From a virus (Duplodnaviria; Heunggongvirae; Uroviricota; Caudoviricetes): 64,000 nt of DNA. Location of the stretch: IMG/VR virus record IMGVR_UViG_3300037589_000184, positions 34,523 through 98,522 of that record. One strand, 5' to 3'. Below, piece after piece: positions 5,084-60,400 of this stretch. Numbering within the stretch: the stretch's first letter is position 1; each line of letters starts with the position of its first letter. A model generated the notes under the pieces. That model saw only the letters and a program-made list of their open reading frames with translations, did no database searches and had not been told where the DNA came from. Position numbers and translations under genes: made by a program.

Positions 5084-5731
5084 ATGGCACAGAAAGCAAG
5101 AATACTAGGTTATCTTGGTGATGATAGGTTTGTTATCGGGTTAAAGGAAAACCAACCTTCCGATGGATCCCCTGATCCCATAAAGATAAAATTGGCCCAT
5201 GACTATGTGGAAATAGAGGGTATGTCCAACTTTATGGTAGATGATAGCTCCGATTACAAATCAAGTAATGGAGTATCCAATTGGGTAAAAAGCCGGGCAT
5301 CCATCCAAATAGGTATCCGGGAGTTCAAGGATATCCTTTTGCCCCTGTTCATGAACGCCCATTATCTCTCTGATGAACATTTTAAGATGAGAAAACATGA
5401 GGAGGATGACAAATATTTTGAACGATATGGTCTGGAAAGTCCTAGATGGACAAAGGGAGAAGAATATCCTCCATATACTTTCAATTCCAGTGTGATAGAG
5501 TTCTTCAATGAGAGGACACAACAACAGATGGTGACTTTTCGTAGGGCACACAGTCTTGTATATGAGACTGTCACAAAGGATCTTTTTGATCTTATCCGGC
5601 CACAACTGGAACTCTATAAATCCGAGTGGGACATGAAAAAAGTGATCGGGACCACTGTGATCGAAGAAGAAAAGGTGGATGACAGTGCCGAGATTGTCAA
5701 CGAGGATGAAAACATCCCACCGGAAGCATAG
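5084..5731 (+). CDS. hypothetical protein
   Basis: 215-aa ORF with an ATG start, ending in TAG. Confidence 0.4.
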   Translation: MAQKARILGYLGDDRFVIGLKENQPSDGSPDPIKIKLAHDYVEIEGMSNFMVDDSSDYKSSNGVSNWVKSRASIQIGIREFKDILLPLFMNAHYLSDEHFKMRKHEEDDKYFERYGLESPRWTKGEEYPPYTFNSSVIEFFNERTQQQMVTFRRAHSLVYETVTKDLFDLIRPQLELYKSEWDMKKVIGTTVIEEEKVDDSAEIVNEDENIPPEA

Positions 5732-5787: not shown

Positions 5788-5800
5788 CGTAACTTCCTCC

Positions 5801-5826
5801 CCTCAAGACCCTCACTAATTTATACC
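5801..5826 (+). promoter_or_regulatory. conserved promoter-like motif copy 1 (CCTCAAGACCCTCACTAATTTA), T3-promoter-like core
   Basis: One of three near-identical copies of CTCAARACCCTCACTAATyT. Its core ACCCTCACTAA equals the T3 RNAP promoter core. It sits between a terminator and the lipoprotein gene. Confidence 0.4.
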
Positions 5827-7512: not shown

Positions 7513-7528
7513 GTTGATACCTCCCTCA

Positions 7529-7556
7529 CCTCAAAACCCTCACTAATTTAGGGACT
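7529..7556 (+). promoter_or_regulatory. conserved promoter-like motif copy 2 (CCTCAAAACCCTCACTAATTTAGGGA)
   Basis: Same motif as at 5801, immediately after a terminator and before a small gene. It includes a downstream TTTAGGGA reminiscent of the T3/T7 +1 GGGA. Confidence 0.4.
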
Positions 7557-9493: not shown

Positions 9494-9565
9494 AAGTGTT
9501 CATCGTGGGGAGGGACCTGCTTTCGTCACCCAGTGATGTCTTCCTCCCCTCTTTGAACCTATAAT

Positions 9566-9950
9566 GGGGCATACAGGCTTTGACAGGTGATATGACCTAT
9601 AATGTTCAGCCAAGAGAGATAACTTGTAAAAACTAAGGTGAATTTACTTAAACGGCAACGTAGAAGATCAAATTCAGGCCAACATGGACACAGTCCATGC
9701 AATTTTGGGAAGCGAAGTAGAAGTAGCTGCCTAAATTTGGCAAGGCCCGTACAAGGTCTCTAGGCATCGGCCATTGTACAATTTTAGGTTAAGTGAGTCA
9801 GGCCACTCGACTGGAAGTGGACAGAGGTTTCCATCTTTACTCTGGATCGTACAAGGATGGTGGTGGAACCCAACTTCGGTTGGCCCCTAAGCTGTATAAA
9901 ACATTGTAGTGATTACATTTTGGACCGGGGTTCGATTCCCCGATGCTCCA
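9566..9950 (+). ncRNA. ssrA: tmRNA (ssrA-like transfer-messenger RNA), phage-encoded
   Basis: 5' GGGGCAT pairs with 3' ATGCTCC to form a 7-bp acceptor stem carrying the G3:U70 wobble that is the alanine identity element, followed by discriminator A. The T-arm is CGGGG-TTCGATT-CCCCG. The 5' D-analog GGCTTTGACAGG resembles E. coli GGATTCGACGGG. The overall 3' end GGACCGGGGTTCGATTCCCCGATGCTCCA is close to E. coli GGACGCGGGTTCAACTCCCGCCAGCTCCA. An internal ORF ends ...GSEVEVAA-TAA at 9732-9734. Length is about 385 nt. Confidence 0.6.
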
Positions 9951-10481
9951 CAAAATATGGTGAATGTACATCATCATAGGAGAAAATTGAAGCAGAACAA
10001 AAAGCATAGGGAAGTTCGAAGAAGTTGACGCAGAGAAAGAACAGGCATCCGGATTGACTTTTGAACATCAATGGAACGTGGCTACTTACCACTTCAATTT
10101 TCTCACCTTATTAAAAGTCTGGCCACCCTTTAGGCTGAGTCCAACTTACGTTAGAGTAAGAAGAGGATAGTAATCGGGTGGCACAGCAACAATAGTGAAG
10201 ACCATATCGATCTGATGATACGTAAGCGAGGCTTTCATCTTAACTGGATTGAACTCGATGTGCATGGCAAGCCGTTAAACTCCTCCTCAGGATCAGCACC
10301 CCGAACATCACAATGATCTAGGTCTTTGTGGTCTTCCTATAAAGTATTCAAGATCAAACAGTCATCTGGGACACACTCAGTACCCATAATATAAGACAGC
10401 TTATTGTGGGGAACGTGGACACAGTGGCCAGTGTCATGTCCCGGATACTGTTTGTGTTATTATGGACAGTTCTGTCCTTAT

Positions 10482-10506
10482 CTCAAAACCCTCACTAATC
10501 TGGGGA
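10482..10506 (+). promoter_or_regulatory. conserved promoter-like motif copy 3 (CTCAAAACCCTCACTAATCTGGGGA)
   Basis: Third copy of the motif, preceded by a small hairpin (GGACAG..CTGTCC), upstream of the 10740 gene and the helicase gene. Confidence 0.35.
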
Positions 10507-34118: not shown

Positions 34119-34655
34119 ATGAGCACAGAAACAGAAGTCAAAAAGCATTTCAAATTACCGGAGCCATTTTTTACAAACTGGTTGGAGGCTTTGAGGTCAG
34201 GGGGCTATGACCAAGGTGATGAGTTCTTGGCCACAGAGGGGGTAGATGAAGACGACCAATATGATGGAACCTATAAATATTGTTGTCTAGGTGTTGCAGG
34301 AGCTATTTGTAAAGTTCCCCTTCCTTTGATGACGGGAGTACCTTTATTGACCCCTGAGGAAATGTCACAAGATGTTTCAGAAAATTATGGGATACCAAAA
34401 ATATTGACAGAACAGGGGACTACTGCACCTTTAAAATATTCCCTTGTTGAGATACTTACATCATTGAATGATGGAAATCTAGCAGAAAAACTTTACCACA
34501 CCCTTGAGGAATACCCCGGAATATGGTATCCAGAGAATATCCTAAGAGAGATAAAGGAAGCCTCCAAAAAGCGTGTAAGCTTGGATTTCAAGGGGATAGC
34601 AGAGTTTTTGGAAAGAAATGTCGAACCTATAAAGGAAACAGATGATATTGCTTAA
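34119..34655 (+). CDS. hypothetical protein
   Basis: 178-aa ORF. Confidence 0.3.
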   Translation: MSTETEVKKHFKLPEPFFTNWLEALRSGGYDQGDEFLATEGVDEDDQYDGTYKYCCLGVAGAICKVPLPLMTGVPLLTPEEMSQDVSENYGIPKILTEQGTTAPLKYSLVEILTSLNDGNLAEKLYHTLEEYPGIWYPENILREIKEASKKRVSLDFKGIAEFLERNVEPIKETDDIA

Positions 34656-41516: not shown

Positions 41517-41588
41517 GGCCCGTTAGCTCAGTGGCTAGAGCAATGGTCTCTAAAACCGTGGTCATGGGTTCAATTCCCATACGGGCCT
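41517..41588 (+). tRNA. tRNA with anticodon CUA (amber/UAG suppressor tRNA); amino-acid identity undetermined
   Basis: Full cloverleaf: acceptor GGCCCGT/ACGGGCC, U8, D-stem GCTC/GAGC with an AGTGGCTA loop, anticodon stem ATGGT/ACCGT, loop C-U-CUA-A-A (U33, anticodon CUA, A37), 4-nt variable loop, T-stem ATGGG/CCCAT with loop TTCAATT, and discriminator U. Confidence 0.85.
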
Positions 41589-41661
41589 CTTAACATTAAT
41601 TAATTGTATTATGAAAAAAGATACAGAATACTAGGTAAACAAAGGGGACTTTATCACAGTA

Positions 41662-42869: not shown

Positions 42870-43132
42870 TGAGAGTAGAAACTATAAAACAGGTACTCAA
42901 AAAGCTGATTGGTCCCATAACACCTGTAGCAGATGCTACTATAGATTCAGAAAGAGGAGAAAATATGGACACTTTTATTACATTGTTTCATGATATGTAC
43001 AGGGACTTAGAGTACATAGCAAGAGAAAAAGAAAAAAGTATCTATGCATCTGAAAAAAGGTTGGGGCAAAAAGCTAGAAGAGCTTTGGATCTTATAAAGG
43101 AAAGTTTTGAAAATTCTGAACAAGGCTTATAA
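42869..43132 (+). CDS. hypothetical protein
   Basis: 87-aa ORF. Confidence 0.3.
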   Translation: MRVETIKQVLKKLIGPITPVADATIDSERGENMDTFITLFHDMYRDLEYIAREKEKSIYASEKRLGQKARRALDLIKESFENSEQGL

Positions 43133-43533
43133 TGGGAATACTTAAAAAGAAAATCATCTATGGATGCGAGGAACGTGGGGATTTTGACAGTCCGTACCTG
43201 ACAAGGTATTATCTGATCAACACGGAGAGACTTCGATTGTGCCTACATATTTTCCATAGATTCGATGCGGATGATCTCCATGACCATCCTTGGAACTTTG
43301 TTACCTTTATCCTATGGAGAGGTTATATAGAACATACCCCGAAAGGAAAAAGAAGGGTGTGGCCATTGTTCCTGTTGTATAGAAAGGCAACACACCGACA
43401 CAGAGTGGAACTGGTGAATGGCAAGAAGGCTGTGACCCTTGTGTTGATGGGCAAGTATGTAAGGGACTGGGGCTTTATCACCAAGAAGGGGTGGAAACAG
43501 TGGCAAGAATATTTTCGTGAACTGGGGTGTTGA
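43132..43533 (+). CDS. hypothetical protein (His-rich HxxxDxxxHDHPW motif)
   Basis: 133-aa ORF. A possible metal-binding motif is noted, but no fold is assigned. Confidence 0.3.
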   Translation: MGILKKKIIYGCEERGDFDSPYLTRYYLINTERLRLCLHIFHRFDADDLHDHPWNFVTFILWRGYIEHTPKGKRRVWPLFLLYRKATHRHRVELVNGKKAVTLVLMGKYVRDWGFITKKGWKQWQEYFRELGC

Positions 43534-43728: not shown

Positions 43729-43757
43729 AAGGTAGGTTTCGGCCTACCTTTTTTTAA
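43729..43757. terminator. bidirectional rho-independent terminator between convergent blocks
   Basis: AAGGTAGG-TTTCGG-CCTACCTT flanked by an A-tract and TTTTTT. It overlaps the stops of the last + gene (43730) and of the 1549-aa - gene (43754). Confidence 0.55.
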
Positions 43758-46700
43758 TCGCTACCAATATATTGCTGCTCGTCATCGTATAGGTACCTTG
43801 CAGGATATGGGGCAGTTGCATTTATCTCCTTGTTGATGAGCTTTGTGATCACGGCATCAAGTTCCTTTTGTGTGGGGATGTCCTGATTGTCGTAATCAAA
43901 TTCCGATTTCCAATATTCCAACAGTTTTGACCTCTCTATGCTCCTGTCCACCCTTGCTTTCTTTCTGTCCTTCTTATAGTCCGTGAAGAACCAAGAATCC
44001 ATGTTCTCATTGGGATCGAACTCCCTTTCCAACATCCTCTCGAAACCAAGTGAACCCTGTCCTATGGAGGGCACGAATGTCCTTTGCAGTTCATTGAGCA
44101 ACCTTGATTCCCCTGCATTTGGCCCGGTGGAAATCTCATCAAGTCCCTGTGATGCCTTATTGATGGCACCACTGATTCCCTTTATCCTTTCCAACCAAGT
44201 CATAAGTGAAGTGGTGGTCATGGAATTGTACATTGCATCCGGGTTCATGTACAGGGTGACATCATTGAGTGTCTTGCTGATCTGGTTCTCCATAAGGTTG
44301 TAGAACTGTTTCTCCTGCTCTGTCCTTGAGTTTTTTCCAAGATATGGATTGGGCACCCCTTTTGCCAAGGTCTTCGGCTCCTCGTCATCATTTGGCCCGA
44401 AGGAGGCCTTTATGATGATCTTTGCAAGGGCAAGCCCCAATAGTACCGAGATTTCGGTCACCAGTGACTGTAGGTTCTGCCTTTCGGCCTCCGATACCTG
44501 TAACCTGTCAAATTGGTGGGCCTTTACGATATCCTTGCCCGTGATGGTGTTGATGGGGAGGCCTATCATTTTTTTCAGGATTGCAATACCTGCATCCGCA
44601 AGCTGTTCTGCAATGAGGAGTTCCTCCCCTCCTGCCCTTGCCTTCCTGTTCAGGTATACATTTCCTGCAATTGCCCCCAGTGCAAGTGCACCTCCCATTC
44701 CCACTCCGAGTCCCATCACACCTGCTGCCATGAATCCTGTCGTGAACAGTGCAGTGGATGCAGTGGATGTCTTGGGAGAGGTGTAGGCACCTGTATAGAT
44801 ACCATCAAAATTCTCCTTGTCAAGTGCAAGGTCCCTTTGGCCATAGGCAAATCTTTGCCAGATCTGGTTGGGGAGCCAAGTCTTAAAGGTCATTACTGTC
44901 TTTCCAAGATTACTGGACTTTATGTACGTGGAACCTGTACGTGAGTAGTCCCCGTTGAGGATGGCTATCATCTCACTTATCCTCGATTTTATATCAGCGG
45001 ACCTATCATTTGAAAAGTCCTGCCAAGTTGCCCTGTTATCAGGGGTATCGAATTCCGGTTTTAGGACTATTTCCCCGTTCTCATCTATTCTATGTGCAGG
45101 GAATGATGTCCCATCGAACACTGGAACTTGGTTTCCATCCTTGTCAATGACCCTCTCGTCCATCAACATGGACAATATCTGTGGGGTCTGGTTATGCCAT
45201 TCCGTATACTCTGTAAGGTAGAATGGATTGAGCTTCTTCACTGTTCCCGTAAATCCGGAATCGTTCCTTGCCCTGTCGATCTCATTGGTGGCATCCTGTA
45301 TGATGTTGAGCTTGTCGATGAAGAGCCTTGTCTTCTTGATCTCGTTCTTGTACTTGTTGTTCCCGGGGATATGTCGTAATCCCTTCTTGTTTATAAAGGA
45401 GTTGGACACTGTAAAGTTCCCTGCCGTCCAATACTTGCCGGTATCATTGATGGCACCGGAGTACCAACCTTGGAACCTGTTGGTAATGTTGGAAGGGATG
45501 TTCCAAGCAAGTCCCACGAATATCCTGAACTTGTTGAACACTGCATTGTACATCTCGGCAAGTGTATAGTTCTTTCCAAGATTCGCAATGGTGTCGTCCA
45601 CTTCAAAGAGTTCGGTCTCATACCTGTCCCTTTGTTGCTCGGTGATCTCACTGCTCTCCAATAGTGAGGACAGCCTTTTCTTTTCCTCCTGTGCCGCTTT
45701 CAGGTATTCCTTCTCGTTTTTGTCATAGAACTTTCCGAATGTGACCCAGTATTCCTTGTCCTCAAGGTTCATCACATTTTTGTTGAACCAGTGGTCCATT
45801 CTTTTATTGGCCCTCATCCTCTTGTCCTGTATCCCGTTCTCCCTAGACCTTGACCTGATGGAATTGGCAATCTTGCTCACCGGATCAAAGCTGTTCTTCT
45901 TTTCAAGACGGATGTTCTCGTACAGGTTCTTGAAGACGGATATCTTTGGCAATGAATCCCTTTGTGATTTGTACTCGGACACCATGTCCAGATAGGCCCT
46001 GATGATCACGGGAAGGTTGAATGACTGCTCCATGGCCACATCATGGGTGACCTCCTCCCTCAATTTATCCAACACCTTTCTTGGTATAGGTTTGTTACCA
46101 TATTCCTGTTTCAGTTTCAGGAGTTCGGTCTTATAGCGAAGACCTACCCTATCCTGTATGTGCTGTATGTTCGAGTTGTTGATATCCTCTATATCACTGG
46201 CCTTGATGTCCCTTATCCTAGTGGAGAAAAGGTTGCCTATGGTCTCCCTTGTATTGGACAACAGTGTGGAGAATTTCGAGGCAGTGCCCATTTCCTTGTC
46301 CAACAGGATATCCGTGGTGAACTTCTGCATGTACGGCAAAGAACTGTGCACCAGTTTTTTAGAGGCATCACTCAAGGTCATGTTCATAAAGGTGACACTA
46401 TCATTGAGGATTTCCCAAAATTCCAATAGATCTTGGTCCTCCTTTATCTGGTTGAAATTGGGATCAAAATATCCACTGTCACTGCTTGTCCTGTTCCCTG
46501 AATTGAAGTCCACCTTTTCAACCGTGGACTTTGGGTAGAACACATTGTACTTTAGGTGTGACTGATATTGGTTGCCCGTGTTGCCTATGGTATAGTCCAC
46601 CCTTCCCTGTTGTCCCCTTTTATGGGAGGACAGGAACTCAAAGGGGCTGTTCCTCATCAATGTGATGTTGAGGGAGTGCTGTACATTATCAGGGAGGTCG

Positions 46701-48403
46701 GATACCTTTGCAACACCATGGGAGGCCAACAGTGTGGAGATCTCATGTGTGGCCATGTCCACAAAATCCTCAAGCTTTTCGGCCTGCTCCTCGACCAATC
46801 TGTCATAGTTCTGCCTACCTATCTTGGATATGGTCTCCTGTCTATAGTCATCACTGGCTGAAAAATGTGGTGCAAATCTCTGGAACCGGGCATCCTCTGC
46901 AAGTTCCGGGATTTTGGTAATATCAAGGAACTCCGTGTTGTCATTGAGCCAAGAATATTTTTCCACAAGGGAGGTGTTCACCTCTTCCCAGTTCCTTGCC
47001 ATAATGGCCTCACTGTACTTTTTGTTGAACTTACGGAAAAAATTTGCCTGTGCTTTGTACCATTTGTTTGAGTAGGGGCCTACCAATCTTCCTGTCCTGT
47101 TACCATTCTCCGTTTTCTGGTAGAACAAATCATAGCTCACTTCGGAAAAGAGGGAGTTCAGGGGTCTCCAAGATATTCCATATCCCTTTTCCAAAAGCTT
47201 CCTCTTTACCTTGGGGACAAGTGCATTCATCTTCTGTACCTGTTCTGCGGCATAGGACTTGTTCTTGCTCCTACTGTTCTCAAGTTCCAACTTTATAAGC
47301 TGCCCCAACAATGAGTCCTGTCTTGTGAACTGTTTGTCTATGGTCCCGAAGAACTGTGATACCACACCTATGTCATCCTTGTCACTTAGGATCTCGTCCC
47401 TTATCTCCTTTGCCTGTTGTCCGGGGAATATGCTCTTTACCTTTGGTGAGGACTCTATAAGGTCCAACAGATATTTTTTCTTTGCATCGTACACCTTTGT
47501 CTTATGCTCGGTGACAGTGGCCCTCAACTTGTCAAGGGTCTTCTTTATCATGGGGTCCAGTTTTGTGGGGTCGGAGGTGTCCACGAACTGGTTCAATGTG
47601 TTCGATGAGGAATAGTCCGATATGATATCAAAATAGGATATCATGTACTCTGCCGTATGTATGTCCTCTATGGCAGGCCTGTCACCGGACAATAGTTCGT
47701 TTATAAGGGAAAGGTCGTCATTGAAGATGGACATGGTGGTCTCGAAGATATTGTCGGAATTGGTAAGGTCATGTACCTCTTTTTCCAGTCTCTCGGCAAT
47801 CTTCCTTACTTTCTGTATCTCCGATTTTATATCCTTCCCGGATTCATACTTTCTCCTTGCCAATAGGGTCTCCAATCTGGTGGTCACCTTTTTCAGGAGG
47901 TTTTTCTTTGCATTCAGGTAGTCGTTGAAATTTGTACTGTCCTGTCCATTGTCAAACGAGGGGAGCATATCGGAATCCATTTCCATGGCATGTTGCATGT
48001 CCTCCACTGTGGGGTACACCTGTCCGGCATAGACATATTCATTGGAGAGTGTCCTTTGTTCGTACATCTCGGCAAGGCTTTTCTCATTGTCCAGTTTCTG
48101 CTCATAGGCCTTCAACAGTACGGGAGGAAAATTGACTTCCAGACCAACGGTATTGCCAAGTTCCAACAACCTTGTCCAACCTCCGTACCTTTTGTCACCA
48201 AAGGTTTCCTCTGACCATTTCTCCACGGCCTGCTGCTTTTTTTGTGCTACCGCAAGTGCCTGCTCCTTGGTCCTGATCTTTTTCCCCGTCAGTTTAAAGG
48301 TGGCAACATTCCCCTCGAACACTATGTTCCTTGCCTTCCCCTTTATCAGTTCCCTTACCTTTTGGGTCCCACGGTCCTTGATTTCATTTATGTTGCATGC
48401 CAT
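43754..48403 (-). CDS. giant virion-associated protein (1549 aa) with Gly-zipper membrane segment
   Basis: Uninterrupted 4.65-kb ORF. Its ATG is 1 nt after the upstream gene's TGA. It has a central hydrophobic Gly-zipper, LFTTGFMAAGVMGLGVGMGGALALGAIAG. Confidence 0.6.
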   Translation of the reverse strand: MACNINEIKDRGTQKVRELIKGKARNIVFEGNVATFKLTGKKIRTKEQALAVAQKKQQAVEKWSEETFGDKRYGGWTRLLELGNTVGLEVNFPPVLLKAYEQKLDNEKSLAEMYEQRTLSNEYVYAGQVYPTVEDMQHAMEMDSDMLPSFDNGQDSTNFNDYLNAKKNLLKKVTTRLETLLARRKYESGKDIKSEIQKVRKIAERLEKEVHDLTNSDNIFETTMSIFNDDLSLINELLSGDRPAIEDIHTAEYMISYFDIISDYSSSNTLNQFVDTSDPTKLDPMIKKTLDKLRATVTEHKTKVYDAKKKYLLDLIESSPKVKSIFPGQQAKEIRDEILSDKDDIGVVSQFFGTIDKQFTRQDSLLGQLIKLELENSRSKNKSYAAEQVQKMNALVPKVKRKLLEKGYGISWRPLNSLFSEVSYDLFYQKTENGNRTGRLVGPYSNKWYKAQANFFRKFNKKYSEAIMARNWEEVNTSLVEKYSWLNDNTEFLDITKIPELAEDARFQRFAPHFSASDDYRQETISKIGRQNYDRLVEEQAEKLEDFVDMATHEISTLLASHGVAKVSDLPDNVQHSLNITLMRNSPFEFLSSHKRGQQGRVDYTIGNTGNQYQSHLKYNVFYPKSTVEKVDFNSGNRTSSDSGYFDPNFNQIKEDQDLLEFWEILNDSVTFMNMTLSDASKKLVHSSLPYMQKFTTDILLDKEMGTASKFSTLLSNTRETIGNLFSTRIRDIKASDIEDINNSNIQHIQDRVGLRYKTELLKLKQEYGNKPIPRKVLDKLREEVTHDVAMEQSFNLPVIIRAYLDMVSEYKSQRDSLPKISVFKNLYENIRLEKKNSFDPVSKIANSIRSRSRENGIQDKRMRANKRMDHWFNKNVMNLEDKEYWVTFGKFYDKNEKEYLKAAQEEKKRLSSLLESSEITEQQRDRYETELFEVDDTIANLGKNYTLAEMYNAVFNKFRIFVGLAWNIPSNITNRFQGWYSGAINDTGKYWTAGNFTVSNSFINKKGLRHIPGNNKYKNEIKKTRLFIDKLNIIQDATNEIDRARNDSGFTGTVKKLNPFYLTEYTEWHNQTPQILSMLMDERVIDKDGNQVPVFDGTSFPAHRIDENGEIVLKPEFDTPDNRATWQDFSNDRSADIKSRISEMIAILNGDYSRTGSTYIKSSNLGKTVMTFKTWLPNQIWQRFAYGQRDLALDKENFDGIYTGAYTSPKTSTASTALFTTGFMAAGVMGLGVGMGGALALGAIAGNVYLNRKARAGGEELLIAEQLADAGIAILKKMIGLPINTITGKDIVKAHQFDRLQVSEAERQNLQSLVTEISVLLGLALAKIIIKASFGPNDDEEPKTLAKGVPNPYLGKNSRTEQEKQFYNLMENQISKTLNDVTLYMNPDAMYNSMTTTSLMTWLERIKGISGAINKASQGLDEISTGPNAGESRLLNELQRTFVPSIGQGSLGFERMLEREFDPNENMDSWFFTDYKKDRKKARVDRSIERSKLLEYWKSEFDYDNQDIPTQKELDAVITKLINKEINATAPYPARYLYDDEQQYIGSD

Positions 48404-48404
48404 A

Positions 48405-51400
48405 TCAAATACAATCTGGTAGTTTCTTATGATTCGATTCAGGAAGCAGGTCCGTCACCGGTTCCTGTGGTGTCTGTGTATCAGGATCGAAGTCCGTGTC
48501 CACATTCTTCTTGAATGTATCAAAGGTATTGTTTTTTTGTCTTTTGAGGGTCTCTTCCTCTATAAAAACAAGGGTGTCCAACAATGCGGACTCTGCAAGT
48601 GAGCCTGATTTTATATCTGGGTTCAACGCTCTCAATATCCTCATAACTGCCTCCCTGAATTTATCAACGAGGGTCATATTGGACCTTTTGTACATTACCT
48701 TTGACATTTCCTCTTGGAACTTGGGTTCCGTAAGGGCAGTGGTAACAAATTCAAATATGTTCACGGAACCATATATATAGGCATCGTTCTCGTTGAACTC
48801 CGTGGGCAATCCAGGTTTTCTGTCATCCAGTTTCTTTTTCAGTACCTCTGTGGCCTCTGCCCCTATATGTTTCTTGAATTCGTTGAACACAAGGTGCAGA
48901 TTGGTCACATATCCGGGAACGGTGATGTCCGATCTCAATGTATTGCCGTCACTCTCATAGTATTTCCTCAGTTCCGTAGATGTTACCGAATGTACCGATT
49001 CATGTACAAAGGTACGGGCAGTCTTTTCTGGCCCCTTCATAAGGGAGTTGTCCACGTCAAGATAAATGGTGTCCTCTTTCCTGTTGTACCTCCCCGAGGC
49101 ATTGGTGCCCCTCCTTACCTTTATGTTCGTACTCTCCTTCAATACGGGAATCAGTGCCCTTGCGGCCTCTGGAAGGTTCTTGTACCTCTCGAACTTTGTG
49201 TTGGAGATCATTTCCATCACATCGGCAGGAAGACTGTCATCCGTTATGTCAAAAGGGTTGGTCAACATCTTGGCAGTGGCCTTCTTTATATTTGGCTCTT
49301 TTTTCGGCCTTGTGTCCACATTGTCCAAAAGGGACTTTGCATCCTGTTCATTGTACTGGTACTCCGACATACCATGTGTTCCCAAGATGGATATCCTTTT
49401 ATAAAGGGAGTTGCCCTGATGCTCAAACAAATGGAACTTGTCCTGTTTTCTTTTGCTCTTGGTGGGTACCCTCATCGATATGAACTTTGGCCTGTCATCA
49501 CTGTTCAAAATGAACGATGTCATCTTACTGCCCTTTCCCTCCTGTGGGGAAAACAGTTGTTTCTGTTGTTCCTTACTATACTGCCTTGCCTTTTCGGGAA
49601 AATGCTGTATATACTGTTTGGTGAACAGGTGGGTACTGTTTTCAGTGGTCTCCCTGTGCCCCAATACTTTTTGGAATATATCGGGCCTTCTGTTAGAGTT
49701 ATAGGACTGCATCACATTGGCAGCGGAAACAAACCTGTCCCCTGATCTTACGCCCACGGACTCAAGATACTCTATGGGCACATATTTTATGAACTGGATG
49801 GCCTCCTGTATCCCTCCCTCTATGTAGGCATAGGTTATAAGATCCTGTGCAAGTTCCCTAGTGGAATATGGTGATCCATTGAGGTCTGGCAATGGCCTGT
49901 CCTCCACTATCAGTTCGGCAAAGGAATTGTAAAGGTACTCCTCATCAAAATTGTCGTTGGATGTATTGTTGAACTTTATCAATGAAGGTTCCCCCATATT
50001 GCCCAGTGAGTATGAGAACTTGTTCAACAACCTGTTTTCCTTTACTGCATTTGTCCCCTGTGAGAATCCCCCGAACTTTTTGCCCCTGTTGGTGATGTCA
50101 TTGAGGTACCTTGCCAAGGAAACATTGGTGTCCGAGTCCATAAACAATCTTTTTCTTTCATTGTTGGCAGTATCGGTGAACAATCCATTGTTCTTCCTTG
50201 AATAGATATACTTCTTGATTTCCCTGATGACTTCCTGTCTTCCCTCGATTTCCTTAAAGCTGCTCTCTGTGTCCGTGTTCGAGACAATAAGGGTCTCATT
50301 GACCACTGAGTTGAAATATCTGTCATTATATGGGAAATATGAGTTCCAGAGACTGTTGCCCAATCTTGTGCCCTCAAGGACTATCTGTCCCTGTGGTGTC
50401 CTTGCCTGCATATAATTGTCACCGACTATATGGTATCCCTCTGGGGCCTCCCCTCCCTCTATCGGCCTACTGTCACCTATAAGGGAGAAGGCATTGGCCA
50501 CTCTCTGGTTGTTGGGGAGATCTGCAAGGTTGCGGAAAAGTACAGCGGATTCCACTATGGACTTTCCTAGATTGTTGGTATTCAGTACAGACTGTAACCT
50601 TGATATGCTCCTTGCATAGGTATCGAGTTCAAGGAACTTTGCCAATGCGGCCAACTGTACCTTTTTGTCCTCTCCGAAGGAACTTATTCCCTCCAACATA
50701 TTATCCCCCGTCAACATGGTGGACCAATCCACTTCCTCGTATGTATCGGATGTCAATAGACTGCCCTCCGAATATACAAGGTTTCCATTTGAATATGTTG
50801 ACACAAGGTCTGCCACTGTCCTTTCCTGTAGGTCACGGACATAGTCGGACACTATCCCCTTCCCGTTCTCCATACGGGATACATATTCCCTCAATATGGG
50901 CTGTGAGAGCAACAGATAGGAAATGGAGTTCCCATTGCTGTCCTTGTCAAAACCAAGTGCAGTGAGCAGGGAATCCACATTGATGGTAGTGGAGTTTATG
51001 TTCACCCTACCAAGTATCTGTTCCTTCTCATTGTCAGTGGCAGTGTTCTGCCTTTCGGCAAACACTTCTGCAACGGATCTTTCCCCATCCAATGTCCTTT
51101 CCCTTCCAAGTGTGCCATCCGATCTTAGATTGCCCATCACCACTTCTTTTGGAACCATTTCATCCTCTCCTACATTCTCCATCAATCTCAATGGATCCGG
51201 AACCTGTTGTGAAAGTCCGTGGAAGGTCACATAGTTTGAGTAGACACCAATGGCAAGCTTACCTGCCGCACCAAGTCCCATCTTCTTTTTCTGGTACTCA
51301 TCGGACAACATGGTAAAGGACGTAACATCCTGATTATCAGACAATGCTTCTATCATATCTGCCTGTCCGGATGCAAACTTCATTGAAAGTACCTTATTGA

Positions 51401-54400
51401 TCTTCTTCTGAACCTCTGTGTCCGGATTGGAGAACACGGCCATGTGGATCTTTATGAACTCGTTCTCAAGGAGCTTCTCATCGAACTTTTCATTTACAAG
51501 GTCTATCTTCTCCTGTATGTTGGTCAACTTATCATTTATTGCCTCTTCATAGGCATCCCCCAACATTGCCCTCATCAACCTGTCCTCTGGGCTGTCCTTT
51601 ATCAATTGCTCCTTTTCAAGGGCATCCAACAGACCTTTCAACCTGCTTTCCCTGTGCTCCTCGGAGAGTATGGAAATCTTGCCATTGGTCTCCACTATGT
51701 GGTTCAACTGATATGCGGTCTCCTTATCGATATCATAGTCAAGTCCCTTCTGTTTTGTAAAGTTTTTTGGTACTATCATAAGATCCCCTACCTCTGGTGG
51801 GAGAATACCCACTATCTCTATGTTGGATCCGGACACATGTGAGGATGTGGGGGTACGGAAACTGAAATTTCTGAGCAATGCCGGGTCCACCATATCCATG
51901 TTGAGACCAAATGTGCCATCTTCGTTTTCCACAAGATAGACATAAGCACCATTCTTTTTCTGGTATAGGTCCATAAGGTTTCCATTGGCATCCTTGAACT
52001 TTGATGGCATCAATACCTGTGCAGGCTGCATCTTTCCATCCACTTCTTTTGCCCCTTGTAGCTCCTGTCCATTCCACCCCTGTAACCTTATTATACGGGA
52101 CCTGTCCATATCATCGAGTGTGGAGAGTGTTGCAAAACCTGTCTCAGATCCTGCAACAAAGGAATTTCCGGGTATCTTGAAATTCATCAACCTGTTGGAC
52201 ACAATGGAATTCAAAAGGGATTCGTACCTATTACTGTTGGTGGAGAGCCATAATGGGACCTTGAATTCCTGATAGGTGTTTCCATTGATATCCGCTTTCT
52301 CCTCAAGTTCCAATCCCTTGATATCCTGTATGGGGTATCCCCTTTTCTCGGCCTCGGATTTCAAAAGGGACTGTAACTTTTCCATTGTCACAGAGCTGTC
52401 CACTGGCTCCCCGTTGTCATCCAATCCAAGCTCACGGAAAAGTTTTTTTCTTTTTGAAGCAACCAGATCCGTGAACACTGAGTTGTACCTGTCATATAGC
52501 TGTTGGCCATCAAGTTCTTCTCCATTGTACGCAAACCCCTTTGCCTTCATGACCCCATCACCGAACAACAATTTGAACATCTGTGTCCCCATTGAAACCT
52601 TATCTTCCTTGACCTGATCGGATTTGAAGGGCACATCCTGCTGTATCCTGAAACTGTCCCTTGATAGTTCCAACATGGTCTCCTCTATGTCCTCAAGTTC
52701 ATCGGAGAAGATATCCTTTGCATTTGACATTGCCCCTACTTTATTGGCAGTCTGGTAGGACAATCTCACGGGTTTTCCATGTTTGGCCTCAAGTTCCTCC
52801 ATCTTCTCCCTGACCCTGTCAAGTGAGGTGCCTGCCGTAAGTTGTGGGATCAGGGGGAATGAGGAGGACTTTATGTACACTGTCCTCATCACATCCTGTA
52901 CAGGATCATATACCTGCCCGGTGAACACGGGCTTTATGGGCTGTAATACAAGCCCCATCTGTTCCTTTGTCAAAGGTCTCTCCGCCAAGAGTGCATCCTT
53001 TATTTCCGACATCTGGGAATCGGACAGCCTTCCTTGGTTCTGTAGTATATGTACATGTTCCCAAACAGTGGTATATTCCTGTGCATCCGTGGACTCTATG
53101 TCAAAGTAATCCGAAAGTTGTGGAAACGTGTCGGCAAGAGTGTCCCTTACCTTTGCGGCCTCTTCCTTTCTTCCATTTGACACAAGGTCCGAGTAGGTCT
53201 GCAACAACGGTCTTGCTTTTTGTACCCCTTCCTGCCCATAGAACAGGGATACCAGATATTCGGAGTTTTCCGAGATGTCCACGGAATCCTTTGCAAACAG
53301 TTGTATGTAGGCATCATTGAGGGAATTGGCCAACTTGTTCCCGGGGGCTATCAAGAGGGCCAACCTCTTTCCAATATTGGTACCTATCTTCTTTGAGGTA
53401 TCTATATAGAACTGGTCATTTGCGGAATGTACCAAAGGTCTGATGTTCAGTTTCAGTTCATTGTACATTTCACGGCTTATGGCACCTGTGGACACAAGAC
53501 CATCGATTCCCTTCAAGAAACTTGAATGGTCGGCATAATGGGAGAAAAGTCCCTCTTTTCCATAGGCCTGTGCAATTGCCCTTATCCTTTGGTTGTCCAC
53601 TCCCAGTTTTGAGAACAGTTTATCCTGTGAATAAAGGGCGGGATCCCCTGCAAAAAGATAGAAGGAATTTGCATTTGCCACCATGGAATTGAGCACAAAA
53701 TCATAGGTTCCCAACCTGAACTTTTTATCAAGGTCCCCCTTGCCCATGGAAAGATACTTTTTGTCGAACAGATCTAAGGATGTGATCTTTCCACTGCTGT
53801 CCCTTTCGACAAGGCCATTTTCCCAAAGGGCCATTTTTTCGTTCACCAATTCGGATATAGTGGTCTCCATGGTGTCCAACATCTGCTCTTTGAAGTTCTG
53901 TTCCACATAGTCCAAAGTGACCTTATCGGAAACGGAGATGTATTTTATCAACCTTATCCCACCCTTGTCCTTCACATTGTTGAGCTGTGGCAATAGGTGG
54001 AACATCTGGGCACCGAGGTCATAGCCCTCTATATCGGTCCCATTGACATCTTTTGAAAACTTCAACATACGTTTCAGTTCCGGCAATATCAATTGGTCGT
54101 ACATAAGCTCCCTCAATGACTGTGACAACTTTACATTACCGGTAAGGTCATCTACCAAAAATGCTGAATCGGCCTCTTCCAAAAAGTTGAACACCCCTGT
54201 CTTGAGCATCAACATCTGGGATTTGTCCGACATTGTGGGAAGGAACATGTTGGCCATCCTCATTCCATAACCCTTGTACTTTCTTTTTATGGTGCCCTGT
54301 TGTGTATCCTGAAACCCCGTAAGCTTTGCAAGATCATGGTCCATGGTGTTGAGGTCGGTGATGGAAGAAAAATTGGAAGATGATTTTCCCAATTGTTTCA

Positions 54401-57400
54401 ATGCCGTGATACCATTATGACTGATGCCGAACTTCTCGGCAAAATTTGGCTCGTTCTGCAAAAGGTCGAGTACCAATGAATTGGATGAGAAGGAAATGTT
54501 CCCGAACTCCCCCAACAATCTTTTATCCGTAAGTGCAGATCTCTTTAGATCGTTTACCCTGTCCGTCACAAATTTTGTGGGGACCTGTCCGGATACCTGT
54601 TTGCCCCCGTCCCTAAAAGTAAGGGTCATTGATTGTGGGGTATACTTTGCCTCTATCTTGGAGAGTGTGTTCAATACCCCTTGCATATCGGTAAAGGGGT
54701 GGTTCTTCTCATTTTCCTCAAACTCCGTGTTCCTTACATGATCCTTGGTGATATTGTCCAGATATTCCCTGAGCAGGGAGAAGATGCCAGTTTTGGTATA
54801 GAACTGCTCGTCGTATTTTTTATATGAACTGTCATAATAGAACTTTCCGTCCTTTAGTTCCCCCCAAGTCTGGTCCGAGACCTCCAATCCAAAATTTGAT
54901 AGCCATTCCCTTATCCTTATATCGTCCACCAAATGTTTTTCGGCCCCCCAAGAATCATAGGTATCCAACAGCTTCTTTGCAAATACCTTGTTGATGGTGG
55001 CAGTTTCCTTGCTCTGGTCAACGAGTTTGGTGACCATGAAATTGTTCCTCCATTTATCCCTTACCAATCTTGTGACCTCGTTTGCATTGGTATCGAATAT
55101 CTTCAATGTTGTCCCATTGTTACCAGTACTGTACATGGCAAACTTCATCTGCAACGCATGTTTTGTGTAGTTGTACACAAATTCCCTTTTTATCTGGTCA
55201 TCGGCAGCTTCCAATTTTTCGATCAATTCCGATACCCATGGCTCGGTCTGTTCCATTTCCCTCAGTTTCCCCAACATCGTGTGGTAATCGGACTGTATGT
55301 CCACTCCTGTACCAAAGTATTGGGCCACACTGTTGTACACATCGTTGAAGCCTATATAGGTGGGGAGTCCCAAAAAGCCCCTTTTAATGTTGCCATTGGG
55401 AGAGTACTTTCTTATCCCGGCCATGAACCTTCTCAATCTATAGGAGGTCTTCTGTTTTCCATTTTCCTCTATGGAGGATTTGTTGTAGTCCTTTTCCCTT
55501 ATGGACATATCCTCCTCAAGTTTTGCCTCATCGTCCAAGGTCTCGGTGATGCCCGTATATTTGCCTACTTTCTGTAATGCCTTGTCCTCTATGGATTTCC
55601 AGTTGTCCTCTATGCTCTGATACACATCAAGTGCATTTCTGTAATCCTTGATGAGCTTTGAGAGCCTTTCCTGTTGGGAGGGGTTTGCATCATAAAGTTC
55701 CTGCAATTTTGGCAAAACCTCCTGTATCTGTTTTTTTGAAGATCCCGTGATGGTGCTATAGGATCCCTTGAGTTCTTCCAACAACAACTTCTTGTTTATC
55801 TTTGCACCATATTTGAGGTCCACACTGGTCAGTAGATTATTGAACAGGAAGTCCACTATCTGGCTTTCCTGTAATATGGAAAGTCCCGGGGCAATGTTGA
55901 ATATGTTCGAGAGCCTATCGACACTGTCCAGTTCGGCAGGCAGTTCATCCATATCCTCGGAAAGGTTGAAACCTATGTCCTTGATAAGATCCTCATAGCC
56001 CTTGATCGTTCCCTCTATGTCATCTTCCACTGTGGCAGGGATTTCCGGAACCTGTACCTCAGAAGATGCTCTTTCTTTGAAATCCTCTATCGGGGCCTGT
56101 TCGGTATCAATGTTGAAAGTGACCACTGGTTGTATGGAGGTTGCATATATAGGATTCTCCTGTGTACCAACATTGAAGGATTTTATGTTGGTGGTGAGGA
56201 CCGTCTTCAAATAGTCGGGGTACCCCATCTCCATATCCTCCACAATACCATCCTTTATATTGGCCATGGACATCTTTCTTGAAATGAACCTCAACTGTGT
56301 CAGTTGTCTGAAACCTTCCTCATTTGATGTGAACAGGGTCTTTCCATATTGGGTCAGGGTGTTTGAGTTCCCCTGTGGTACACCATAGGCATTCATAAGG
56401 TCAACGGCATCCCTACCTATCCTAATATCGGTACCGGTGATCTTTTTCACGTCTTCAACTATTTTAGAGGCCTTTTTTTCCTCCATATCATAAGGGGTCC
56501 CCGCAACATACTGTTCATACATGGATCTTACCCTTTCATTGTCAAGGTTCAACCTTGCCTGTGCGGCCCATATCCACCTAAGGGTCTCAAGGGCCTCTGT
56601 ATGTATACCATTATTACCAAGGTTGTTCCTTCTGGTCACAGGAAATGCCCTCCATGTCTCTTTCCCCGTTTCCGGGTCCGTACCTATTCTCCTGATGTCC
56701 CAAGTATGTCCATCGGTCCTATATCTACTTTTTTCGTTTATCTGTTTGAAATCCTTTGCCCTATCGTTGACCAACATCCTGTTCTCGTTCTCAAATGGGA
56801 CATTATAATCAAGTTCAAGTGAGGACCCTCTTTGTACGGCAATGATGGACTGTGGATTTGCTTCCGAGATGGATATCTCGGGCCTGTCCATGGGTATCCT
56901 ATAAAAGGCCCCCTCCCTTTTGGAGGTCACCTTCAATGTGGAGGTACTGCCGTCAATAATGCTGTTCCTCAATGTCGATACATTGTCCTTGCCCTTCTGT
57001 ATCAATTCGGCATGTGATGGGGAAATGTTCGAAAGGTCCACAGTATCCATGTCACTGGTAGGGTCGGACACATTGAAAGGGTTGTACCAGTCCACATCAT
57101 GTATGTATGCCATGGGCACACCTTTTTCATTAAGGGCAAAGATCGGCACCCTGTCCCTGAACTCCTGTGTATCCCTGAAATTTCTGTCGGACAGTTCCCT
57201 CTCAGAGACCCAGTCCGAAAAGGGTTTTACGATTGCTGAACCATCCGGGTTCCTGCCAACTGTGAGCTTTATCTTTTGCCACATGTCCTCCGGGGCCACC
57301 ATTACCTGTATGCTGCTGCCCTCATTGAACTTATCAGGGTGTAAAAGATCGGAGAAGTCCACTATGCTGTCGGCATCTATGTTGAGCCTTCCATCATCTG

Positions 57401-60400
57401 CCTGTACCCTTTTCCAGTTTCCTTCCTCGTCCACAACTTCATTGTAGGCAATGGCATTGAACCCCAGTTTGGTGTCCGCAATGGCCACCCTTTTTCCACT
57501 TACTTTCTTGATAGGGACATTCTGATCTGTGAACCCGACTATGGGAGCAGCTTTCTCCCCTATCCTCTCCTCCTGTGAGTCGAGATGCTGTGAGACTTCC
57601 TGTTGTCTTTCGGGAAGGGTCTGTGAGAATATGTTGTTTATGGCATCCAATGCCTGCTGTGTCACTCTTTTCAATGGGTCGAACAGCTCATCATATATGG
57701 CCTCGAAGTCAGGCTCCTGATAAGAGTTGCCCTCCCATCCCAATCTATAGGCATTGAAGTTCTCCTCTATCATTTCCTGTGGGGCATAGGCCAATAGATG
57801 GTGCATGAACTCCTTGAAGTCCGGTTTTCTGTTGTTCTTCTTTTCAAGTGCCCCATAGATGTTGGCCACACTGTCAACAATGGTCTGTCTCTGCTCGGGG
57901 GTCAGGCCCTCCGTACTGTTGGGAAGTTCATCAAAATTGTCCAGAACATCATCCCTGACAACGAATGCGGAATTTATTTCGGATACATTGTCATTGATTT
58001 CTTTCCCGATATCCGGATCCAAGGGTTCCTCAACGACCTCTGCCGGAGTTTCCTCTATAGGTGTCCCGGATACGTTCCTGTCTATGGTGTCCTCCTGTTT
58101 CTGTTGATCGGCATCTGCTTTGAGCTTTACCTGTTGTTTGAAAAAGTCGGATATCTGTTTCCTTTCGTTCTTTGTAAGCCCCTGTCCAAAATTCTTTGAT
58201 GCCGTGGACATTACTGTGTCCACTGTGGCCTCGTCCACTTCTTCCATCAGGTTCAACTGTTTGGCAACCTCTGATGAAAGTTCTTTTTTCTGTCTCTCGC
58301 TCTCTTGGAATTTTGGTGATACCTGTCTGTTGAACTCGACAAGGGAATCGTCCACTGTCCTCTGCACCTCTTCTTCCACTGTATTCAAGAGGTCATAGGT
58401 CTGTACAGAGGCAATGTCCTCTTTTTCCAGTACATCCAAGAACTTTTTATAGTTTGCTTTCTCTGTCCCGTCCACAAACTCGTTCTTTGTATAGAGATCA
58501 TCAAGGGTATAGGATACATTGAGGTTCTTCCGTTTGATAAGTGCATCAAGGTCCTCCCTCACATCATCGGAGATCTCCACCTTTCTCTGGGAAAGGTCGT
58601 TTAATGTCCTTCTTCCAATAATCTTGTTTGACTGTAACTGTACTATGTCCCCGATATTTGGAAGGTGCCTGTACCTGTCATATACTGTTTTCAGTTTATC
58701 CACATCCTGCTTTGCAAGTTGTGCATTCATCCTTGTGCTTTCCGATACATCTGTATTGGTTGACAATCTGTCAAGGGAACTTATGAACTCATCCGCAGTG
58801 TTTGTCTTAAAGGATTTGACGGCAAGATTGTAGAACATCTTTTGTTCCACCTTATCTGCCTGATCGTTTTTACCCTCATTTCTCAGTTGCTGTACCTTCA
58901 ATCTCTGGTCAGCTATGGTAAATCCCGATTGGGCAGTGGAGAAGTCAATGATCGAGGATACCTCTTCATCTGATACGGCATTCCTCAATTGTGACATTCT
59001 TTTTCTAATCTCTTCCCTGTTTCTGTAGAATTCTGGATTGTTGATCCTACTGGGCAGTGTCAATCCGGCCCCAAATGCCCTGAACCCCACTCCCATAAGG
59101 GCAGTCTGCCCAAGTATGTCTATATGGGTATCAGCGGAACCAAGGGCCTTTATCTCGTCAAGGTTCCCACTGTTCAGGGAGTTCAAGGGAGCGACAAAGA
59201 GTTCCTCAAAATATTCCCCGGGGATACTGTTCAGACCTATGGCATCGGAGAACTTCGATGTCCCCTCCTTTATGTTCTTATAGACTTTTCCCAACCTTGT
59301 GTTGACAAAGTTCCCACTTGCCCTTTTCAATACGGGGAGCTTTGCCAGTCCCGAATCAAAAAGTTTTCCACCAAACTTTTCGGATACCAGTTCATTTGCG
59401 GTATCAAAGAATCCCTGTCTTATGGCCTTGCCCACACTTACGGGTACCATTCTGTCCAACATCTCGTCGTATGAGATAGTCCCCGGAACATCCTTTGTGC
59501 CCAATCTCCCATCTATCTCATCAAGCTCTATTGAAAGTTCTTCGGAAAGGTCCCCGGAAATAGACAATATTTCCTGTCTCCTCTTTTCATCGGCCTTCCT
59601 CAATATGGCCACTTCATCTTTTGTCCTGTTATAGAGGTCATCCCTGAAATACACCTTTGACACACTTCCATTGTCATCAAAATCGACCTCCATTGCACCT
59701 TTGTACCTATCAACCATATTGCTATAGGTCAAGGGCATGGCAAGGGCCTGTGTGCCCACTGCAAGTGTGTTTGCGGCAGTTCCCGATATTCCAGTGGCAA
59801 CGGATCTCCTTACCCCCTGTTTGATAAGCTGCTTGGCACCCCCCTGTACACCTGTCCTGACACTGTTCGACACTCCACTTGTAGCTGCCATCTGTGCAAG
59901 AAAGGGCAGGGATTTCATGGTCCCATCGACTATCCTATAGCCACGGGAGTGTTGCATGTCACTTGAGGACTGTATCTGTTCCGTTAGGGCAGTGGCCTTG
60001 AACAGGGCATCTTCGGAGGGTTCCAGTTGTGACCCCTTTTCAGCCTTTAACAATACTGGCAAGGTGAACATCACATCCTGTACGAACCCGTACATTCCCA
60101 GTGTGCCCAGTTCCCTGTCCATTCCATCAAGGGCAGCCTGCCACCCAGAGGATTTGTTTATCACGGCATCCACCGATTCCATGGATTCCTCCAACTTGTT
60201 CATGGCCATCTTGAACTCCCCTCTTTTATGTGAAAGGAGCTTGTCCTCCCCCTCCCCATACTCAAATTCAAGGAATGCCATACGGGCATCACTCAGGTTC
60301 CTGTTCAATCTTTCTTTTATTTCATTGAGGACCGGAAGGGATTTTGCATGGATGCTCTCATTTATTTCGTTGACCCTTTTTGCATTCTCACCCGACATAC

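Follow-up and report, generated by a model that had tools for sequence, protein, structure and literature searches.

In trans-translation, a transfer-messenger RNA (tmRNA, the product of ssrA) is processed, receives a CCA end, is charged with alanine via its G3:U70 pair and enters stalled ribosomes together with SmpB and EF-Tu; translation then resumes on the RNA itself and terminates at the stop codon of the encoded tag. The gene described here is a tmRNA gene of a tailed phage (Caudoviricetes), located in a stretch of 64,000 nucleotides (nt) that covers positions 34,523 to 98,522 of the IMG/VR record IMGVR_UViG_3300037589_000184. This whole stretch is called the window, and coordinates refer to it unless another record is named. 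The gene is very probably a genuine, functional one-piece tmRNA of a lytic-type phage and a member of a phage-only clade with long tags. The closest described cellular system is the chromosomal tmRNA of Bacteroidota (SsrA; tags GENNYALAA or GETNYALAA). Like the window gene, it is a one-piece molecule with the G3:U70 pair, the T-arm, the 5' strand GACUGGUUUUGACAG, the resume context UAAAC before GGC, a CCA end that is not encoded and a tag ending in Ala-Ala. It differs in its tag of 9 amino acids (aa), which lacks an Ala-Asn-Met (ANM) core, in its block at pseudoknot 1 (PK1) and in its chromosomal location, and it shares about 62% identity with the window gene in the first 95 nt.

Phage-borne tmRNAs have been reported from several other groups. 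Among 18,146 phage genomes, 402 carry a tmRNA, and the roles proposed for these genes are to keep hijacked ribosomes running and to tag host proteins for recycling (PMC9004378). The original prediction, made from the letters of the window without database searches, had called phage tmRNAs rare. Their frequency is indeed only about 2.3% of phage genomes (PMC9004378), but they are already catalogued: a 2025 tmRNA database includes RefSeq viruses and gives 10 aa as the commonest tag length (PMC11915505), mycobacteriophages, Bxz1 among them, and Bacillus phage G are listed with ssrA (PMC4131195), and huge phages carry a tmRNA together with SmpB (PMC7162821). The tmRNA of mycobacteriophage Bxz1 (cluster C) is one-piece and, as here, has a long tag (ATDTDATVTDAEIEAFFAEEAAALV, 25 aa), which suggests that long tags may recur among phage tmRNAs. 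Bxz1 (L245) also possesses a tRNA with a CUA anticodon (5437-5509, with the tmRNA at 10060-10494), as the window phage does. Bxz1 differs in its unrelated host phylum, in the lack of any sequence relationship, in a tag without the ANM core that ends in ALV, and in the placement of the gene inside a large tRNA array. The tmRNAs of marine myophages (Melnitz, pelagimyophages, cyanophages) are likewise borne by lytic phages (PMC9004378); they are two-piece, permuted molecules of alpha-proteobacterial or cyanobacterial type, some of them controlled by riboswitches, whereas the window gene is one-piece and of Bacteroidota type. The RNA of mycobacteriophage DS6A is phage-encoded and interacts with trans-translation as well, but it consists of the tRNA-like domain (TLD) only, has no tag frame and has been proposed to act as an inhibitor, while the frame in the window is intact and under selection at the peptide level.

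The Calle phages, phi38:1, phi40:1, phi14:2 and the FpV4/Fpv/FPSV group carry tmRNAs of the same clade as the window gene, with which they share the PK1 block, the resume context and the tag core. Their tags include GNNTNAVNAQIEANMEAVNAILNLEVAVGV in the Calle phages, GNDTDNTQLKANMTVVHNILNG...MVA in phi14:2 and GNTNNSVVSLEDNAQVEANMNMAFSLIREDVAVAA in Fpv3. Clade members are already in GenBank, and the window gene is a new and divergent one, since its overall identity is at most 70% both to the tmRNAs of isolated Flavobacteriaceae phages and to anything else retrieved. In the literature searched, with partial coverage, there was no description of one phage-only tmRNA lineage across three unrelated Flavobacteriaceae phage taxa, of a tag three to five times the host length, or of peptide-level selection on a tag core.

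The tmRNA gene and selection on its tag peptide

The gene and its coding elements are the following:

9566..9951, + strand: complete one-piece tmRNA gene (ARAGORN; Rfam RF00023)
9566..9572, + strand: 5' strand of the acceptor stem, GGGGCAT, forming 7 bp with 9943-9949 and including the G3:U70 wobble
9943-9949, + strand: 3' strand of the acceptor stem, ATGCTCC, followed by the discriminator A at 9950 (read from the sequence)
9926-9930, 9931-9937 and 9938-9942, + strand: T-arm CGGGG / TTCGATT / CCCCG (read from the sequence)
9654..9734, + strand: tag reading frame, with resume codon GGC 9654-9656 and stop codon TAA 9732-9734, encoding GNVEDQIQANMDTVHAILGSEVEVAA
9669..9707, + strand: conserved tag core QIQANMDTVHAIL, which fits the family motif Q[IV]xANMxxV[FHY][SN][LI][LI]

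The original prediction of a complete ssrA-like gene of about 385 nt is borne out by the two programs that it had named as a check. The Rfam covariance model RF00023 scores the locus at 65.7 bits (gathering score 47; E = 2e-23) over its full length (model positions 1-374 of 374), and ARAGORN, which is independent of Rfam, calls a tmRNA at 9566-9951 (+). Both find a single full-length tmRNA in the window. The acceptor stem and the T-arm lie where they had been placed, as does the analogue of the D-loop, GGCTTTGACAGG at 9576-9587, which was read from the sequence. CCA is not encoded at the 3' end, where the gene finishes in ...CTCC-A-CAA. In an alignment of 39 family sequences, the G3:U70 pair, the predicted identity element for alanylation, is invariant (39/39), and the acceptor stem is 100% paired with compensatory changes at pairs 5-7. 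The T-arm, too, is fully paired (100%) throughout the family, and three of its pairs show 13-18 double changes. The tRNA-like domain has no anticodon arm.

The reading frame of the tag had been correctly recognized by its end, ...AILGSEVEVAA followed by TAA at 9732-9734. Its start had been sought further downstream, at GCA 9699 or GCC 9678, and this proposal did not hold. GGC 9654-9656 is the choice of ARAGORN, falls on the consensus resume codon in the Rfam alignment and lies in a conserved context, UUAAAC before GGC, which is the same in host-type Bacteroidota ssrA genes. With this resume codon, the tag GNVEDQIQANMDTVHAILGSEVEVAA has 26 aa rather than about 11-18 aa and ends in ...EVEVAA. 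An exact 32-mer of the window tag was not found in IMG/VR.

Related loci were gathered with a pattern from the PK1 block, AGAGAGAUAACU-N(1-8)-AAACUAAGGUGAA (window 9613-9642), and not with the tag, so that conservation of the tag is an independent observation. The context UAAAY followed by G[GA]N is common to 123 related loci. Tags were read from this conserved context because the resume codons chosen by ARAGORN are inconsistent among relatives and often lie too far downstream (in phi14:2, for example, its choice gives 11 aa, where the frame reads 38 aa). The family then comprises 85 distinct tags of 24-49 aa (median 35). All but one contain the core Q[IV]xANMxxV[FHY][SN][LI][LI], ANM itself is present in 84 of the 85, and the C-terminus is VAA, LAA, IAA or MAA in 71.

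Codon patterns and frame-preserving indels show that selection acts on the translated tag peptide. Among 84 unique coding sequences (CDSs) of the family, the core residues Q, A, N and M are invariant and V is kept in 83, while the third codon positions of these residues vary: Q, A, N and V are encoded by 2, 4, 2 and 4 codons, respectively, and the Leu/Ile positions by six. The summed entropy at codon positions 1, 2 and 3 is 11.0, 7.7 and 15.9. Synonymous changes make up 37% of the pairwise codon differences in frame, compared with 12% and 5% in the two shifted frames. A frame-agnostic search gave eight values for the distance from resume codon to core, from 15 to 51 nt, all of them multiples of three, and the indels are thus all frame-preserving. 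Conservation extends 5' of the invariant AUG, which argues against its use as an independent start codon. The core persists in three phage taxa and in at least four large gene contexts that are unrelated to one another.

These patterns bear on the possibility that the RNA does not tag at all, being either a relic in decay or a decoy that sequesters host SmpB or ribosomes and so inhibits host trans-translation, in the manner proposed for DS6A. In E. coli, tmRNA is inhibited by a phage tmRNA of the TLD-only type (PMC4131195, PMC11915505), no phage SmpB is present among the open reading frames (ORFs) scanned across the window, and the pseudoknots of the window gene are unproven. On the other side, the tag frame is intact in 123 loci, with synonymous changes, indels that keep the frame, and conserved resume context and stop codon. 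Such a pattern would not be expected of a frame that is never translated, and a non-tagging RNA is accordingly quite improbable. A second alternative accepts a working tmRNA but gives its long tag no special role, so that RNA structure and recent ancestry would explain the conservation and only the Ala-Ala degron would matter. It draws on a short helix in the tag frame, in which, according to RNAalifold, GCUA in the Ala-Asn codons pairs with UAGC close to the end of the tag (4 bp, 97% paired, one covarying pair; in the window this helix has a C-A mismatch). Many family members are also closely related, and outside the core the tag varies in length and sequence. The use of several codons for invariant residues, the excess of entropy at third positions, a synonymous fraction that is 3- to 7-fold higher in frame, and the span of the core over unrelated gene contexts and phage taxa all speak against it, and it is considered unlikely. 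The reading adopted here is that of a functional tmRNA whose tag is maintained as a peptide.

Distribution of the clade and location in phage genomes

The PK1 block separates the phage clade from cellular genes. Among 185,579 bacterial and archaeal species (one genome each), a single occurrence was found, on a contig of 4.9 kb from a Flavobacteriales metagenome-assembled genome, while at least 120 viral contigs of IMG/VR, many of them 90-117 kb long, match a near-identical pattern. Identity to a chromosomal ssrA, with chromosomal flanking genes, had been named as the observation that would overturn a phage origin, and these counts point the other way. For comparison, a degenerate probe built on the canonical tag was used to collect 99 host-type Bacteroidota ssrA genes from metagenome contigs, the largest of which reach 1.6 Mb. 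The published DNA of the Bacteroides tag was tried as a probe and gave no match; it is evidently a synthetic design and was replaced by the degenerate probe. The host-type genes have a median length of 397 nt, and their tags are mainly GENNYALAA (83) and GETNYALAA (8). Comparison with the host tag, as had been proposed, therefore gives 9 aa for the host, 26 aa for the window and 24-49 aa for the clade. Neither half of the PK1 block is present in any of the 99 host-type genes.

In its first 95 nt, the window gene has a median identity of 78% with the phage family, compared with 62% for the host type. The phage and host-type genes share the 5' strand GACUGGUUUUGACAG, a Gly resume codon with its context and a non-encoded CCA, and the phage clade was thus most likely derived from a Bacteroidota ssrA.

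Among isolates, the clade is present in 29 of 29 phages of the FpV4 group, in seven records of Cellulophaga Pervagoviridae (Calle_1-3, phi38:1, phi40:1) and in the crAss-like phage phi14:2, and the hosts of all these isolates are Flavobacteriaceae. Only the Calle records have the tmRNA annotated. It is unannotated in all 29 records of the FpV4 group, and CDSs labelled 'hypothetical protein' overlie it in those of phi38:1, phi40:1 and phi14:2 (KC821612, KC821614, KC821624). ARAGORN detects the gene in 75 of 123 family sequences, and Rfam recovers 13 of 16 that ARAGORN missed. In two loci, L010 and L011, the PK1 block is present and the long tag frame is intact, yet neither ARAGORN nor Rfam calls a tmRNA; the gene may be interrupted or rearranged there. 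Some clade tmRNAs adjoin large tRNA arrays, as in L010 (IMGVR_UViG_3300012909_000001, 100 kb, about 20 tRNAs) and L035.

The window itself is phage DNA throughout, and the early impression that the genes on both sides of the tmRNA look phage-like can be extended from the two flanks to the whole 64 kb. On the + strand, small early ORFs are followed by a replication and nucleotide-metabolism module recognized by PHROG matches, with a Dda-like helicase, a MazG-like pyrophosphatase, a family-A DNA polymerase, a primase, a Sak4-like annealing protein, an exonuclease, a dNMP (deoxynucleoside monophosphate) kinase, a second helicase, a thymidylate synthase and both subunits of ribonucleotide reductase. 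No match to an integrase, SmpB or RNA polymerase family and no bacterial housekeeping gene was found among the ORFs scanned across the window. Two giant ORFs lie on the opposite strand:

48405-60935, - strand: ORF of 4,176 aa, phrog_16227 'virion structural protein'
43754-48403, - strand: ORF of 1,549 aa

The core of the 4,176-aa protein is 33% identical to a structural protein of 29 podophages of Flavobacterium psychrophilum with genomes of 88-92 kb (FpV4, Fpv1-3 and the FPSV series). Among 50,697 phage records, no near-identical DNA was found for the 20 kb around the tmRNA gene. In FpV4, the tmRNA is located within an unannotated gap of 2.3 kb (KT876724; L124, 5948-6362; Rfam 58.2 bits), and Rfam also detects a tmRNA in Fpv3. 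The window and FpV4 share a gene order of small early genes, tmRNA, a homologous 216-aa protein and the helicase/DNA polymerase module. The hosts of the relatives are all Flavobacterium or Cellulophaga, and on this basis the host of the window phage would probably be a member of the Flavobacteriia or of another Bacteroidota lineage.

The same data decide whether the gene could be a host ssrA, or a fragment of one, at the attachment site of a prophage, with the window representing a prophage junction. Many temperate elements use ssrA as their integration site and take its 3' end with them (PMC9004378), and the 5' tRNA-like strand and the resume context resemble those of Bacteroidota host genes. 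Against a junction, the gene is full-length and has its own tag, phage genes make up both flanks over 64 kb, no integrase was found among the ORFs scanned, the isolated phages FpV4 and Fpv3 have a tmRNA in the corresponding position, and the distribution of the PK1 block is that of a viral and not a host element. This explanation is effectively refuted and retains hardly any probability. The original view of a phage-borne gene, as opposed to a host ssrA used for attachment, is upheld by the lack of an integrase among the ORFs scanned, the synteny with the lytic-type isolate FpV4 and the single full-length tmRNA; the gene does not mark a junction with host DNA but is vertically inherited in the phage lineage.

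Elsewhere in the window, a 133-aa ORF at 43132-43533 (+) matches PHROG phrog_4786, annotated as cysteine dioxygenase (E = 2e-35), which is seldom expected as an auxiliary gene of phages.

RNA structure and transcription context

Beyond the tRNA-like domain, the following elements were delimited in the window:

9585..9610, + strand: 5' strand of helix P2, ending in UCAGC 9606-9610, which closes on GCUG 9891-9894; the 3' strand covers about 9891-9925
9611..9642, + strand: PK1-equivalent block, with CAAG 9611-9614 / CTTG 9623-9626, loop AGAGAUAA and then AAACUAAGGUGAA at 9630-9642
9831..9883, + strand: two post-tag hairpins, CCATC 9831-9835 / GATGG 9856-9860 and CCAAC 9870-9874 / GTTGG 9879-9883, with a UUCG loop (coordinates set by sequence inspection)
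9744-9779, 9796-9820 and 9822-9860, + strand: candidate PK2-PK4, interleaved stems of 4-6 bp

An explicit structure consisting of the acceptor stem, the T-arm, P2, PK1 stem 1, the two post-tag hairpins and the short helix of the tag frame was tested on the 39-sequence alignment. In this structure, 93.4% of cells are paired, compared with 36-47% when the partners are slid, and double-sided changes occur at 33 of 47 pairs; the observed values were reached by none of 500 shuffles. P2 corresponds to helices 2-4 of the family, which are 92-100% paired with double changes at 14 of 17 pairs (RNAalifold and explicit pair counts). PK1 stem 1 has 3-4 bp among relatives, with compensating extensions. The post-tag hairpins match the two covarying hairpins of the family, in which helices 7-9 show double changes at 10 of 11 pairs. 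Short family members (about 320 nt) clearly carry fewer post-tag elements. In the post-tag region of the window, an exact 9-nt direct repeat, CGTACAAGG, is present at 9748-9756 and 9848-9856 (+), with a spacing of exactly 100 nt; it may be the trace of a duplicated pseudoknot module.

Several results weigh against the reading of the locus as a functional tmRNA with a conserved tag core. The family was gathered by an exact PK1 pattern, so that the invariance of the PK1 block arises by construction and gives no measure of covariation. Folding of PK1-PK4, which had been suggested as a check, gave a divided result: PK1 stem 1 is backed by the family, while the second, interleaved stem of PK1 was looked for and not identified, and the candidates for PK2-PK4 are at chance level, as 116 of 500 shuffles yield as many. 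The nested minimum free energy fold has a z-score of only -1.56. The GCUA/UAGC helix of the tag frame implies that part of the ANM conservation may be structural. The tag motif was found in no natural protein, its only matches being miscalled ORFs of 30-78 aa over tmRNA genes. A protein partner beside the tmRNA, such as SmpB, an adaptor or a protease, was not found either, since no family occurs in more than 21 of 124 loci (19 gene contexts). Finally, dependence on host SmpB is assumed, and we infer expression, charging, tagging, the use of SmpB, and the role and binding target of the core from sequence.

The promoter-like motif that had been noticed on both sides of the gene is present at all three sites, but it does not stand directly 5' of the tmRNA, the nearest upstream copy being 2 kb away:

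5802-5819, 7530-7547 and 10482-10499, + strand: promoter-like motif CTCAA[A/G]ACCCTCACTAAT
7530..7547, + strand: nearest copy upstream of the tmRNA, CTCAAAACCCTCACTAAT

The motif extends to about 30 nt, CCTCCTCTCAAAACCCTCACTAATTTGTAG, and in this form the window copies cover 5794-5824, 7522-7552 and 10474-10504 (+). Each of them is preceded by a terminator-like hairpin. Twelve copies of the 30-nt motif were found across the window and six related viral contigs, each of which has a copy upstream of the tmRNA on the same strand (the loci listed with the motif are L003, L007, L039, L044, L059, L075 and L078); FpV4 and Fpv3 are without it. Its core, AACCCTCACTAA, agrees at 12 of 13 positions with the promoter of the phage T3 RNA polymerase. 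The resemblance suggests a phage single-subunit RNA polymerase, which is not encoded in the window. As 7530-7547 is the nearest upstream copy and no terminator is predicted from 8900 to the tmRNA, the gene is probably the distal part of a unit that starts there.

A dedicated promoter at G1 was also considered, based on TATAAT at 9560-9565, which abuts G1 of the tmRNA, or on a shared 12-mer, CTTCCTCCCCTC. It was set aside as a weak possibility. The region aligns only loosely to the three copies of the motif, chance alone would give about 120 repeated 12-mers in 64 kb (own estimate), and most relatives are without a conserved element abutting G1. Downstream of the tmRNA, about 450 nt (9954-10403, +) separate it from the next convincing gene, and no ORF in them, on whichever strand, exceeds 59 aa. 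This stretch is closed by a terminator-like hairpin at 10429-10450, just 5' of the promoter motif at 10482.

Proposed function of the long tag

In the proposed mechanism, the tmRNA would be transcribed with the rightward early and replication genes, probably from the T3-like promoter 2 kb upstream, and the transcript would be trimmed in the manner of a tRNA. Because CCA is not encoded, it would be supplied by the host enzyme. Host alanyl-tRNA synthetase would charge the RNA with alanine through G3:U70, and host SmpB and EF-Tu would act as its partners, the use of host SmpB being suggested by the lack of an SmpB among the window ORFs scanned. The charged RNA would enter ribosomes stalled on broken mRNAs, and translation would resume at GGC 9654. 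The nascent chain would thereby gain Ala plus GNVEDQIQANMDTVHAILGSEVEVAA, and termination at TAA would release the ribosome.

The product of this process would differ from that of the host in that the 9-aa tag is replaced by a two-part tag of 24-49 aa, composed of the conserved core and, at the end, a hydrophobic-Ala-Ala sequence as is usual for protease degrons. In Bacteroides, GETNYALAA acts as a strong degron, and the retained end suggests that the phage tag is still a protease degron. With moderate confidence, the core may add to or alter the recognition by adaptors. Its hydrophobic spacing (positions 2, 6, 9 and 12/13) would fit an amphipathic helix, and its partner, as a best guess, would be an adaptor or protease, of host or phage origin, that decides what happens to the rescued chains during infection. 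The tag suggests that these phages tune host protein quality control. A stronger proposal, which is offered tentatively and may well not hold, is that the 13-residue core is a dedicated recognition module. The phage tmRNA would outcompete or supplement that of the host, relabel all rescued chains of the infected cell with a peptide specified by the phage, and direct them to a particular adaptor, protease or other fate distinct from that given by the 9-aa host tag. This would be a takeover of trans-translation and more than an added capacity for rescue.

Genome papers usually list phage tmRNAs and do not discuss them. The clade defined here is large, easily recognized and almost exclusive to phages, and its one translated product, the tag, is selected as a peptide and is systematically unlike the host tag. 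Why phages carry a tmRNA becomes a testable question, both through a search for a binder of the ANM core and by asking whether the tag speeds, slows or redirects proteolysis. For such work, clade members are available in culturable systems: FpV4 on F. psychrophilum, and phi38:1 or phi14:2 on Cellulophaga baltica. If the tag proved to be an ordinary degron, the finding would shrink to one more phage-borne tmRNA.

The commonest neighbours of the tmRNA in the family are a pair of MoxR AAA+ and vWA-like genes, a PD-(D/E)XK nuclease and small proteins of no known function. In about 16-21 related viral loci (L086 and L090, for example), which represent one gene context, the MoxR-type AAA+ ATPase (Pfam bpMoxR/AAA_5) immediately precedes the tmRNA; it is not found in the window. 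In the same loci, it is accompanied upstream of the tmRNA by a 458-aa protein with a vWA-like MIDAS motif (DYSGSM).

A tRNA with a CUA anticodon, corresponding to an amber suppressor, is located in the window at 41517-41589 (+) (named 'Pyl' by ARAGORN; Rfam tRNA 67.5 bits). Recoding of TAG, a possibility prompted by this tRNA, was rejected for the window: an in-frame TAG is present in no real gene, and the ORFs that would be merged by read-through are all antisense to real genes. No suppressor tRNA was found near the tmRNA in the other family loci, for which flanks of 5-7 kb were covered. The co-occurrence of an amber-suppressor tRNA with a tmRNA here and in Bxz1 might reflect a link between stop-codon read-through and the demand for ribosome rescue.

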